Shown here: positions 1,795 to 16,975 of the stretch, one piece after another
Numbering within the stretch: the first letter of the stretch is position 1
Layout: each line of letters begins with the position of its first letter
DNA from: Eledone cirrhosa
Taxonomy: Eukaryota
DNA length: 19,276 nucleotides
Assembly: GCA_964016885.1 (NCBI GenBank)
Contig: CAXHJY010000989.1
Span: 1 to 19,276, forward strand
Reading direction: 5' to 3'
The notes under the pieces: model-generated
Databases searched by the model: none
Seen by the model: only the letters and a program-made list of their open reading frames with translations
What the model was told of the DNA's origin: nothing
Position numbers and translations under genes: made by a program

Positions 1795-1836
<42 letters not shown>

Positions 1837-1845
<9 letters not shown>

Positions 1846-2258
1846 TAAACAAATAATGAATAAAACAATGAAACAGTTCCTTATATTAAACAAAAAAAAG
1901 TTCATTATTTAAACGATCGTTTCTAGGATATATATGTGTTAGAATTGGCATGCATATTCAACAGATCTATGTACAAAATTATACAAACTATCAAGATTAA
2001 ATATACATACCAAACACACATATACGCCGTCTTCAGAAATAATTATTTCTGAAGACGGCGTATATGTGTGTTTGGTATGTATATTTAATCTTGATAGTTT
2101 GTATAATTTTTGTATAATTTTGTACATAGATCTGTTGAATATGCATGCCAATTCTAACACATATATATCCTAGAAACGATCGTTAAATAATGAACTTTTT
2201 TTGTTTAATATAAGGAACTGTTTTCATTGTTTTATTCATTATTTGTTTAATATTTTAT
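1837..2258. repeat. 422-bp spacerless inverted repeat (palindrome), probably an inverted PLE pseudo-LTR duplication
   Basis: Axis between 2042/2043 (CTTCAGAAATAA|TTATTTCTGAAG). Arms are 206 and 216 nt and differ only by an 11-nt duplication (TTGTATAATTT) in the right arm and three 1-nt homopolymer indels. The left arm starts at a (TA)n tract. Confidence 0.95.
2042..2191 (+). ncRNA. Type I hammerhead ribozyme-like motif with extended stem II (mirror copy on minus strand of left arm)
   Basis: Stem I ATTATTT 2042-2048 / AAATAAT 2185-2191; core CTGAAGA 2049-2055; long stem II 2056-2172; GAAAC 2173-2177; palindromic stem III ACGATCGT; cleavage triplet GTT 2182-2184. The stem II base is non-canonical (C...A). 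Confidence 0.65.
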
Positions 2259-2411
2259 CTTGACTCTGGATACCGTTTATCTTTCACCGAAAGTGATTTT
2301 TCATTACATCTCTTCTTTCCATGATATCCGGAATACATTGAGTTCTTCATACGGATTGGGACACTACCGTAAACTCTTGGTAGATTTATCTACATATATA
2401 TATATATATAC

Positions 2412-2557
2412 AAAATAGCTAACTGAATAGTTCCTTTCTCTTCGTACACTTTTCTTTCTATTTATCTTCTATTTCGAAATCTATCTTCTGATGAAAGACT
2501 AATGTCCGAAACGTTAAGACTCTCTGTCTACAATTTCTGTTTATCTTTTACATACCC

Positions 2558-3410: not shown

Positions 3411-3459
<49 letters not shown>

Positions 3460-3469
3460 CATATGTGTG

Positions 3470-3505
<36 letters not shown>

Positions 3506-3506
3506 C

Positions 3507-3541
<35 letters not shown>

Positions 3542-3546
3542 CATAC

Positions 3547-3579
<33 letters not shown>

Positions 3580-3822
3580 CATACATATGTGTGTATATAT
3601 ATATATATATATACATACATATGTGTGTATGTATATATATATATATATATATATATACATACATACATATGTGTGTATGTATATATATATACATATGTGT
3701 GTATGTGTGTATGTATATATATATATATATATATATATACATACATACATATGTGTGTATGTATATATATATACATATGTGTGTATGTATGTATTTATAT
3801 ATATTTGTATATATATATTTGT
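2559..3822. repeat. Higher-order microsatellite: ACATACATATGTGTGT(ATGT) units separated by (TA)n
   Basis: Direct reading; the left part uses the variant GCACATACATACATGTGTGT. Source of the YI/HTY-repeat ORFs. Confidence 0.97.
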
Positions 3823-4480
3823 GTCAGGTCACCAGTTGGTGCTACTGGTAACATGTATCCCAGAACAATCTGTCCCATGGTCGGGTCGTTGGCGACTAAA
3901 CTGGCAACCCTACCAAGTTTTCTTGGTGAGGAGGGTGATTTTGGACATCCTAAAGGACTAAAAACAAAACCTGTCAAAGGGCAAAGGAGCTCTTAAGAGT
4001 CAATGGCCATCCAAAATCACCGGGAGAGATGACCCCTTAGCCTTTGTCAAGGCAGAATTCTAGCAGAAGGAAAATTCTGATATAACACCTGCAACCCTGA
4101 TGGTATCCAATGATGTTGACTTGTTCTTCTTTTTGGTAAATATCATCTTGGTTAAGAGAGTGGGACTGGCTTTGTGCAGTGCTTTTGCTCCCTATAAAAG
4201 CTTCACGGCACAGGCATTACTTTATATCTGGAGATCTCTCAGAACTTGTCGTCACATGGTACCATGGGCCCAGCACTATGTGTCAATAATTGTCACAAGT
4301 GTAGTGTTTGTACCAGAGTTTTCAAGTTGCTGGCCCGAATAAAAAATAATACTCGTTCAGCCCATCGGTAGGGGTTCTCCTACATGGATATAAAGTAGTG
4401 GCCCTACTCGAAAACGAGTTGGCAGCGCTCTGGTAACGAACTACTGAAAACTCAACGTCGAAACCAACGAATGATTGATC
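3823..4480 (+). mobile_element. Interspersed repeat, probable RTE-type LINE 5' leader/UTR
   Basis: The first 205 nt recur at 10194-10398 (13 substitutions, no indels by my count). CTAGCAGAAGGAAAATTCTGAT near 4060 resembles a motif I recall from RTE leaders. More GC-rich than the flanks; right boundary approximate. Confidence 0.6.
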
Positions 4481-9141: not shown

Positions 9142-9775
9142 ATATACGTGAACGACGCAGTAATATACGTGAACGACAAAGTATAAATGAATTGAGAGAG
9201 AGACTGAGCATAAGAGGAATCAAATGCTGTGTGCAGGAGAGGCGGTTGCGCTGGTATGGACATGTGATGCGTATGAAGGATGATAGCTGCATAAAAAGGT
9301 GCAGAGCACTAGAAGTTGATGGAAACCGAGGAGTGGGGAGACCCAAGATGATCTGGGATGAGGTGATAAAAGCCGACCTTACCCAATTACACCTCTCAAA
9401 GACAATGACACACGACCGTGACTTCTGGCGTCACGCAGTAATACAGAGTACCCGACCTCCCATGGGTACAAGCTGAAGCATATAGACAATATGCCCCCAC
9501 ACCTCCCACCGCAAGGTGGTCGTGGAGGTGCCACGGCAAAAAAGCACCCAGCCCACACTGTAAAGTGGACGTGTAGGCGCCACGAAAAAGCACCCAGCAC
9601 TCACTGTAAATGAGGTTGGTGTTAGGAACGGCATCCAGCTGTAGAAATCAAGCCAGATCAGTTCCTGTATGAGCAAGGCATGGTCAGCCGACCAGACACT
9701 GCCCACAACAGGACAACCCGTCTAACCCATGCTAGCGTGGAAGAACGGACGTAAAATGGTGATGATGATGATGAT
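9142..9775 (+). mobile_element. 5'-truncated RTE-clade LINE: ORF C-terminus, 3' UTR and (GAT)n tail
   Basis: Open frame to the stop at 9476: [29 protein letters not shown]...[23 protein letters not shown]...DRDFWR (RLRW.GHV.RM, GRP..W and DR..WR are RTE hallmarks); GATGATGATGATGAT tail 9761-9775. Confidence 0.92.
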
Positions 9776-10077
9776 ATATGTGTATATATATATATATATG
9801 TATATATGTGTATATATATATATGTGTATATATGTATATATGTGTATATATATATATGTGTATATATGTGTATATATGTATATATGTGTATATATATGTG
9901 TATATATATGTGTATATATATGTGTATATATATGTGTATATATATGTATATATACATGTATATATACATATGAATATATATACATATGAATATATATACA
10001 TATGAATATATACATATGAATATATACATATGAATATATACATATGAATATATACATATGAATATATATATATATGA

Positions 10078-10109
<32 letters not shown>

Positions 10110-10141
10110 GAATATATATATATATATATGAATATATATGT

Positions 10142-10193
<52 letters not shown>
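9776..10193. repeat. Compound (TA)n microsatellite with TGTG and CATATGAA variants
   Basis: Direct reading. Confidence 0.95.
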
Positions 10194-10196
<3 letters not shown>

Positions 10197-10398
10197 AGGT
10201 CACCAGTTGGTGCTACTGGTAACATGTATCTCAGTACAACCTGTCTCATGGTCGGGTCGTTGGCGACTAAACTGGCAACGCCACCAAGGTATCTCGGTGA
10301 GGAGGGTGACTTTGGACATCCTGTAGGACTAAAAACAAAAGCTGTCAAAGGGCAAAGGAGCTCTTAAGAGTCAATGGCCATCCAAAATCACCGGGAGA
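10194..10398 (+). mobile_element. Second, truncated copy of the 3823 repeat (first 205 nt)
   Basis: ~94% identical to 3823-4027; same start (GTCAGGTCACC) after a TA tract; ends in a TA tract. Confidence 0.9.
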
Positions 10399-10444
<46 letters not shown>

Positions 10445-10449
<5 letters not shown>

Positions 10450-10713
10450 ATAATAATAAATTTGAAGACTAAAATCCAAAGAGGGCTCGATAAGGATAAA
10501 TATATATCAAATATATAAGAACCGTAGAGCAAATATTATTTGCATAGCGAACGTTTCAACGAACCAAAGTATCGTCTTTCTGTCTTCCTCCGGTGCAACG
10601 TTTTTTGAAATATCCACTTCTGCGTTTACAGATTGACTTTGTTAGTTTCAGAAGATCCCGTTAAGGGTGAAAGCAGCGATTCTTTGCTTAAACTTTAATC
10701 TGTTATTTTAATA
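10445..10713 (-). mobile_element. Short repeat in (TA)n carrying a degenerate hammerhead; probable PLE pseudo-LTR fragment
   Basis: Both ends recur at 14873-14952; minus strand has TTGCAC-CGGAGGA...GACGA/TCGTT-GAAACGTTCGCT-ATGCAA. Confidence 0.55.
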
Positions 10714-10801
10714 AATATATATATATAGATATATGTATACATATAGATGTATATATATATGTATATATATATATGTATATATATATATGTATATATATAT
10801 G

Positions 10802-12885: not shown

Positions 12886-13040
12886 TGTATGTATGTATGT
12901 ATGTATGTATGTATGTATGTATGTATGTATGTATATATGTATGTATGTGTATGTATGTGTATGTATGTGTATGTATGTGTATGTATGTATGTATGTATGC
13001 ATGTGTATGTATATGTATGTATGTATATGTATTTATGTAT
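10714..13040. repeat. ~2.3-kb compound microsatellite grading from (TA)nTG to (ATGT)n
   Basis: Direct reading; source of the 807/812-aa low-complexity ORFs. Confidence 0.97.
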
Positions 13041-13437
13041 GGCCACCTCCATATTATATGGTGGGTTATACCAACAAATGCGACGGGATGTATTTCTTCT
13101 CGGTCTATTTTCGTACTCTGTATCTGCTACCTTATCGACAAATCCACTCCGAGCAAGAGCTTCATTGTAATAAGTGGAATGGTCGTTGAAAATATGCTCG
13201 TTAGTAGATAGACGGGAAAGTCTCTACGAAACGTTTCTTACCAGGTTCTCGGTTATGCTGGCAGGATGGTTGGAATGAATACTTATGTAATTAAGCGTAT
13301 CATTCGGCTTTCTATACGGGTAATACAACCCATTCAATAAATTGAGGGTAACGTCGAGGTAATTAACGACCGAGAGATTGGCCTCAAGTTGATGTCATCC
13401 TCAATGCCCGTAAGTCGGTGATTAATTTCGACGACTC
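13041..13437 (-). mobile_element. Penelope-like element RT C-terminal/thumb-linker fragment (pseudogenised)
   Basis: Manual minus-strand translation with frameshifts and a stop at 13224-13226: [81 protein letters not shown]...[15 protein letters not shown]. The YLDV, PYRKP, SNHP and W.NPP motifs are PLE-type. Confidence 0.85.
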
Positions 13438-14837: not shown

Positions 14838-14872
<35 letters not shown>

Positions 14873-14877
<5 letters not shown>

Positions 14878-14944
14878 ATAATAATAAATTTGAAGACTAA
14901 AATCCAAAGAGGGCTCGATTCTTTGCTTAAACTTTAATCTGTTA

Positions 14945-14952
<8 letters not shown>
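14873..14952 (-). mobile_element. Internally deleted copy of the 10445-10713 repeat
   Basis: Identical ends joined at CGAT (14916-14919); flanked by (TA)n on both sides. Confidence 0.9.
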
Positions 14953-14993
<41 letters not shown>

Positions 14994-15029
14994 GTATGAT
15001 TCCATATGCAAACCAAGAAGAAGAATTTA

Positions 15030-15678: not shown

Positions 15679-15793
15679 ATAAGAGAAAGTATGACTCGAC
15701 GGCAGAGCTCAAGCCGTTTCGACGGCTATTTCAGTCCAGAAATAGCCGTCGAAACGGCTTGAGCTCTGCCGTCGGGGTCATACTTTCTCTTAT
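15679..15793. repeat. 115-bp inverted repeat (54/55-nt arms, 6-nt loop AGTCCA) containing the 3' half of a hammerhead
   Basis: Arms 15679-15732 and 15739-15793 differ only at GAGTC vs GGGGTC; the right end abuts a TA tract. Confidence 0.93.
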
Positions 15794-16784: not shown

Positions 16785-16975
16785 TCTTGGTGCCCTAAGC
16801 TCAGCTCCCGCCGGGCCCGTGTGTGCCTTTTATATTTTTTTGACTGCTGGTGCCCTTACCTCAGCTCCCGCTTACCCCATGTGTGCCGTTTGTATTTATT
16901 CTAACTCTTGGCGCCCATAGCTCAGCTCCCACAGAGCCCGTGTGTGCCTTTTATCGTTTCGGGTCGATAAAATGT
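16785..16975 (+). repeat. Three ~60-bp tandem units inside a diverged SINE
   Basis: Units start near 16785, 16846 and 16906 (TGGTGCCC..AGCTCAGCTCCCGC...GTGTGCC); the last runs into the SINE core GCCTTTTATCGTTTCGGGTCGATAAAATG. Confidence 0.75.

Follow-up and report, generated by a model that had tools for sequence, protein, structure and literature searches.

The window considered here, meaning the whole 19,276-nt stretch of Eledone cirrhosa DNA that was analysed, comes from an AT-rich host dense in microsatellites, which may in this respect resemble octopus genomes, and it holds a single long perfect palindrome that is not itself a microsatellite (search for palindromes with at least 10 bp per arm). 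Alignment of the arms recovered it as a 422-nt inverted repeat with zero spacer, just as the original prediction had it, with a left arm of 206 nt and a right arm of 216 nt meeting at 2042/2043 (Table 1), and with 68 bp of perfect symmetry on either side of this axis. No substitution separates the two arms, and the expectation that they would differ by indels only was borne out: the right arm has 11 extra nt near 2098-2108, in the loop of stem II of a hammerhead motif, the left arm carries an additional T in its cleavage triplet, and the remaining two of the four indels are single-T differences (T8 versus T7, and T3 versus T4). On the 5' strand of stem I the axis falls after the first base and so lies, as foreseen, one base inside that strand. 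Outside the palindrome the flanks have no mirror symmetry, the best match being 27 nt at 81%. Because both outer ends sit in (TA)n, a target-site duplication is indistinguishable here.

Table 1. Features of the palindrome and its surroundings, in window coordinates (X1, X2 and X5 are public runs described in the text).
Feature	Position	Strand	Basis
(TA)n tract, left half of likely target site	1795..1839		TRF, 22.5 copies; its final 3 bases match the arm as well
Inverted arm, with the family's sense on the minus strand; its end corresponds to 2258 of the family	1837..2042	-	Arm alignment; X1 contig ends
Damaged hammerhead copy: extra T at cleavage triplet, stem II loop shorter by one 10-nt unit	1904..2043	-	Arm alignment; descriptor scan
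Centre of symmetry AAATAA/TTATTT, at 5' edge of stem I	2037..2048		Arm alignment; axis bridged by X5 and X1 contigs
Type I minimal hammerhead motif, right arm	2042..2191	+	Descriptor scan
Direct arm, forming the family's pLTR-like body	2043..2258	+	Arm alignment; public contigs
Stem II, 117 nt, 44 predicted pairs (7 G.U); five X5-only A>G sites at 2062, 2151, 2163, 2165 and 2172 (2176 in core)	2056..2172	+	Folding
One-sided tail of the palindrome's repeat family, ~135 nt	2259..2393	+	Covered in X1, X2 and X5; no left mirror copy
(TA)n tract, right half of likely target site	2394..2410		Sequence
Neighbouring minimal hammerhead of canonical size, outside the palindrome and from another abundant family; second motif of the scan, at 2488-2515	2484..2519	+	Descriptor scan; contig cover

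Several other features lie elsewhere in the window. A second near-perfect hairpin at 15679-15793, with a 6-nt spacer, ends at a TA tract and resembles a hammerhead's 3' half, comprising stem II, GAAA at 15751, a 5-bp stem III and GUC, mirrored about the stem II loop; CUGANGA is absent from both of its strands, and it is possible that this hairpin represents a fold-back at stem II. On the minus strand, 13032-13394 carries a broken RT-like frame (Atlas hits 0.96-0.97, with PF26215 on 36% of one cluster) whose SNHP and WYNPPY motifs we take to resemble the RT thumb/linker of Penelope-type elements; this remnant gave no Pfam match, and as a link to PLEs it is only a lead. An open stretch at 9150-9473 (+), also without a Pfam match, presumably resembles an RTE-type LINE frame at its 3' end. 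A short element at 10419-10761 lies between TA tracts and has a second copy, with the middle deleted, at 14847-14998 (identical over 73 nt, followed by 85 nt matching at 89%). Two copies of another repeat (3411-4027 and 9774-10398, 83%) start directly after microsatellite tracts, and 16785-16954 is a tandem array of 2.8 copies of a ~60-nt unit. Among the best 150 of 312 Rfam matches none reached its gathering score, and all those listed are microRNA-family matches to hairpins or microsatellites; mir-1277/mir-3149, at 1981-2104, were rejected as lying below threshold.

Copies of the family in public contigs

Sixteen public runs hold part of 1100-2556. Four of them, all consisting of contigs, were compared on 1985-2556 (572 bases), namely X1 and X2 from one sample and X5 from another sample of organism A, and X4 from organism B; X3 and X6-X16, 12 of the 16, stand outside this comparison. 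More than 3,300 records fall on the 572 bases in each of X1 and X2, and, summed contig depth not being taken as copy number, the palindrome's element and its neighbour are abundant repeats. In X1, X2 and X5, 2259-2384 is covered at a depth of the same order as that of the arm, and because it is covered like the arm we assign 2259-2393 to the family as its tail. The original prediction had let the left arm end at a (TA)n tract, which it does, and had let the right side run on into unique sequence, a description that has to be given up, since the 2259-2393 extension is repeat-family sequence and itself stops at (TA)n. Six X1 contigs pass from 2258 into (AT)n, in the same way as the outer end of the left arm. 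The T3/T4 difference between the arms, at 2221, is a common family variant, with 28-37% of X1/X2 depth.

Copies that turn at the axis were also found. Record 25 of X5, from the other sample, is a diverged copy with 7 differing letters and 5 gaps, at a depth of 2.1; it spans the axis (1990-2085), reaching 53 letters to the left and 43 to the right, and record 1 of X1 crosses it (2013-2109) with a short side of 30 letters, one under the 31-letter bridging mark. The substitution A2041C, present in six contigs of X1 and five of X2 at a distance of at most 31 letters from where the contig stops, probably marks copies whose centre is asymmetric. All six distinct joints in X1/X2 leave the inverted arm at 2037-2046, for which the crude chance over 40 observable positions is 2.4e-4, and they re-enter the direct arm at 2150, 2162, 2277, 2307, 2334 and 2359, four of them with 3-23 filler letters; the short sides of these joints are all 22-28 letters long, less than the tool's reliability mark of 30. 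Two of the six re-enter within 2325-2364, a 40-nt segment of the tail whose depth in organism B far exceeds that of the sequence around it and which is perhaps a motif shared with another repeat family. Joints from the other runs (X4 2041>2335, 2064>2335, 2495>2533 and 2519>2481; X5 2194>2305) were excluded from the count; of the uncounted ones, X4 2041>2335 fits the axis pattern and X4 2064>2335 does not. The interior of stem II, 2065-2144, is without cover in X4, a gap to which no weight was given as evidence. Among the records listed in the four runs none spans the whole stretch.

Since a contig from another sample spans the axis, several contigs share the 2258/(AT)n end and all six joints lie near the axis, the turn point is likely a fixed 5' end of the family rather than a one-off. 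Whether other copies invert at the same place was one of the tests named beforehand, and the axis-crossing contigs in two samples, together with the six joints, answer it in the affirmative. By the same evidence, the notion of a recent, singular event gives way to a recurrent family architecture, of a kind already published for PLEs. Pattern scans in metagenomes, prokaryote genomes and viral contigs returned 0 loci.

Hammerhead motifs and A-to-G variants

A descriptor scan of both strands of the window, with 200 dinucleotide shuffles of its 13,321 non-microsatellite bases as control, returned two hammerhead motifs, both on the plus strand; not one of the 200 shuffles yielded a motif with a stem I of at least 6 bp. 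The motif of the right arm joins a 7-bp stem I (2042-2048/2185-2191) to CUGAAGA (2049-2055), GAAA (2173-2176), the palindromic stem III ACGAUCGU and the cleavage triplet GUU, with the cut predicted after 2184 and with C2056 as the unpaired base after A9. It has in common with the PLE minimal hammerhead the UH triplet, stem I, CUGANGA and GAAA, but it departs from it in two respects: the G10.1-C11.1 pair is not placed directly before GAAA, G2057-C2170 being followed by U2171 and A2172, and helix II is expanded from ~7-8 bp to 117 nt with 44 pairs. The predicted fold of this stem II has -42.3 kcal/mol (z -7.3), and no shuffle out of 200 was as stable. When the single arm is allowed to fold freely, the core is predicted to be drawn into a longer hairpin, 2046-2176, that is 7.3 kcal/mol better than the hammerhead, the pairing probability of stem I in this ensemble being 0.0, and for read-through RNA of both arms the predicted folding gives -298 kcal/mol, versus -139 with the hammerhead forced. 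The activity of the right-arm ribozyme would likely be low. As for the left arm, its copy failed the hammerhead descriptor on the minus strand by the one extra T at the triplet, and the proposal of two ribozymes pointing outward from the axis is not confirmed. With the left copy damaged, the right one lacking G10.1-C11.1 and the read-through RNA folding away from the hammerhead, a picture of two working ribozymes in the palindrome is doubtful.

In the family at large the cleavage base varies, T2184A (a GUA triplet) accounting for 33-36% of the depth in X1/X2 and for 96% in X4. All five X1/X2 variants inside the hammerhead stems preserve pairing, as A-U or G.U, and no X1/X2 variant of at least 3% falls in CUGAAGA or GAAA; this pattern supports a conserved hammerhead-type structure. 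The second hammerhead family is deeply covered in organisms A and B with differing flanks, and its majority A2496G restores the G10.1-C11.1 pair that is mismatched in the window copy. In the majority of this second family, pyrimidine-rich sequence lies upstream of the motif.

A different kind of variant came from X5. The tally covers the 23 variant rows in 2023-2329, with 12 of the 35 rows (2469-2507, second hammerhead family) excluded. Six variants have at least 3% in X5 and less than 0.5% in X1 and in X2, and each of them is an A>G change in the strand that carries the ribozyme. They lie at 2062 (recorded as T2023C), 2151, 2163, 2165, 2172 and 2176, in 3-29 contigs each. This share of A>G compares with 5 of 15 for the variants shared with X1/X2 (Fisher p 0.012), and the changes hit 6 of 63 sense A versus 0 of 102 on the antisense strand (p 0.003). 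Within the 2046-2176 hairpin they affect 6 of 39 A, versus 0 of 56 downstream (p 0.004). These figures describe the family and not the palindrome locus; X5 is a different sample from X1/X2, and contigs are not independent events. A 5' G, expected to be depleted next to A edited by ADAR, stands beside none of the six putatively edited A, a count that is uninformative at n=6 (chance 0.40). From its small contig set (88 versus ~1,390 million letters) and the A>G pattern itself, we infer that X5 is an RNA-derived run. We consider it probable, though by no means assured, that RNA of the family undergoes ADAR-type editing. Because the changes are confined to the ribozyme strand and, on it, to the hairpin of the single arm, the substrate would be stem II and not the palindrome; with the read-through palindrome as substrate, edits on both strands would be expected. 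The suggestion that the locus furnishes a dsRNA or editing substrate thus survives as an editing-like signal of the family, and not as regards the palindrome.

It is tempting to go one step further, although we think the idea improbable, and to regard the 117-nt stem II as a landing pad for ADAR, where editing would switch the ribozyme and so gate the self-cleavage of the retroelement RNA, and from which edited RNAs would be written back as A/G variants of the stem. Two sites are of concern to such a switch, 2176, which is the core A15.1, and 2172, at the base of stem II. Inosine at 2172, closing the stem II base against C2056, is predicted to make the hammerhead fold 2.5 kcal/mol more stable, and inosine at 2176 would break the core pair. 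Inosine at 15.1 opposite U impairs hammerhead cleavage. Editing at A15.1 or at the stem II base of retroelement ribozymes was not found in open-access papers, the search covering articles and not supplements. If real, editing at these two sites would link host RNA editing to retroelement ribozymes. Hyper-editing as such of Penelope repeats is known in lizard (PMC5625713).

How the palindrome may have formed

Judged by its likeness to published elements, the palindrome is very likely a non-coding PLE pLTR insertion. An inverted copy meeting the direct one by its 5' end, a tail at one end only and a (TA)n target are all three found here, and the PLE inverted-pLTR reading, put forward beforehand, gains support from the head-to-head architecture and from its recurrence in other copies. 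No PLE reading frame is attached to the palindrome. As to the origin of the two arms, the scenario we favour, giving it somewhat better than an even chance, is that each was reverse-transcribed from one nicked strand of the target and the two were joined head to head where their template has its 5' end. The arms, the axis, the one-sided tail, the (TA)n on both sides and both junction types in other copies were observed directly; the steps that follow are drawn from what is known of PLE biochemistry. An RT/GIY-YIG protein supplied in trans by a PLE would nick both strands of the (TA)n tract. From one 3' end cDNA synthesis would begin at the inner site, 2258, and from the other at the outer one, ~2393, giving rise to the tail. 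Both cDNAs would copy uncleaved RNA up to its 5' end at stem I, and the two cDNA ends, finishing in self-complementary AATT, would then anneal or be end-joined. Should one cDNA stop early, the product would be a full inverted arm and a truncated arm with a few filler bases between them. In this scheme the ribozyme would be mostly silent, and sense transcripts of the family would be A-to-I edited on the long stem II hairpin.

Priming from both strands would account for the orientation of the arms, the one-sided tail, the (TA)n at the outer ends and the truncated partners with filler. A PLE protein studied in purified form nicks the two strands of the target and extends both of them, uses uncleaved RNA and starts at two internal sites bracketing the tail (PMC11167929). 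PMC8557442 and PMC3846280 describe PLE insertions in which an inverted pLTR adjoins at the 5' end, with palindromes where the copies meet head to head, a tail at one end and a (TA)n bias, and PMC4209133 has dual minimal hammerheads on opposite strands of PLEs. Against the PLE model in general stands, besides the missing reading frame, the length of the tail, where ~135 nt exceeds the published 30-40 bp, and the truncated joints could be one-sided deletions after insertion. Among the matches listed in a literature search on Penelope, no paper combined twin priming with pLTRs.

The same PLE might have acquired its second arm by fold-back, the AAATAA/TTATTT end of the cDNA at the 5' edge of stem I priming upon itself and the product being resolved at 2258 into (TA)n, a route we regard as possible, though the less likely of the two. 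The zero spacer and the 0 substitutions between the arms speak for it. The latter also tell against priming from both strands, given that the family is polymorphic and that two independent templates would match over 7 sites with a chance of ~0.28; they fit self-copying at least as well. Short 5' palindromes together with self-priming have been proposed for PLE pLTRs (PMC3846280), two of the joints overrun the axis by 2-4 bases (2044, 2046), and the hairpin at 15679-15793 resembles folding back at a stem II loop. Fold-back has more difficulty with the four arm indels, one of which is the common family variant, with the filler letters at truncated junctions, and with the re-entry points of the six joints, none of which is at 2185-2192, where stem-I-guided self-priming would land.

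That the family is real while the palindrome at this locus is a fold-back chimera, or a mis-assembly of a single-arm copy, seems to us very unlikely: the flanks are not mirrored, both junction types are present in independent contigs with the axis bridged in another sample, and the palindrome stops exactly at the recurrent family end. An artefact of this kind would be in keeping with three of the four arm differences being single-base homopolymer indels, with the absence of the two extra T's of the left arm from family variants at 3%, with the best public run containing just 0.55 of sampled words and with the want of a listed spanning record. Nor do we give much more than nominal credence to the palindrome being a preformed unit, a fold-back/MITE-like element or a retrozyme-like RNA, copied whole and not rebuilt at each insertion. 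The constant axis would follow from it, and A2041C in high-depth contigs suggests shared descent of some palindromic copies, but the tail is one-sided, the partner arm is truncated at six different places, the window has no tandem units, and a 205-bp duplex RNA would presumably be a poor template.

Comparison with known systems

Animal non-LTR retrozymes (PMC7229834; bioRxiv 10.64898/2026.07.22.740005) are likewise short, non-coding, equipped with a type I hammerhead and probably mobilised by PLEs, but they are head-to-tail tandem repeats, whereas the palindrome is a head-to-head pair. Head-to-tail tandem hammerhead units are absent from the window, and no 'goes back' joint was found for the palindrome's family in the four runs; identity with a tandem retrozyme was rejected for lack of tandem units in the window. 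With the hyper-edited lizard Penelope repeats and palindromic frog Harbinger repeats (PMC5625713) the family shares a repeat-derived hairpin RNA and clustered A>G changes; in the accessible text of that report the edits are not placed in a ribozyme, while here candidate sites fall on A15.1 and the stem II base.

The minimal type I hammerheads of metazoan PLEs (PMC4209133) have, like the right arm, CUGANGA, an extra base after A9, GAAA, a palindromic stem III and a UH triplet, and that report already notes opposite-strand pairs 100-700 bp apart. In contrast to its helix II of 7-8 bp, the family here has a stem II of 117 nt (44 pairs), and it differs further by the extra UA between the G-C pair and GAAA and by its 7-bp stem I. 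Poseidon of Anolis (PMC11167929) resembles the present element in the two 3' ends bracketing the tail, the AT-rich target and the intact hammerhead in an inserted copy. Poseidon, however, is autonomous, with a frame that begins in stem II, whereas the stem II ATG here runs into a stop within 18 codons.

Closest are the endonuclease-bearing PLEs with inverted pLTRs (PMC3846280, PMC8557442), which share the head-to-head repeat, the palindrome at the junction, the tail at one end, the (TA)n target and the hammerhead in the repeat; taken together with PMC4209133, these reports make the architecture of the palindrome one already known for PLEs. What sets the present case apart from them is that no frame lies between or beside the arms, that the tail has ~135 nt instead of 30-40, and that the arms, without a spacer, meet precisely at stem I. 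With its abundance, its fixed turn point and its two 3' ends, the family offers material for studying how PLE inverted repeats arise, by priming on both strands or by fold-back.
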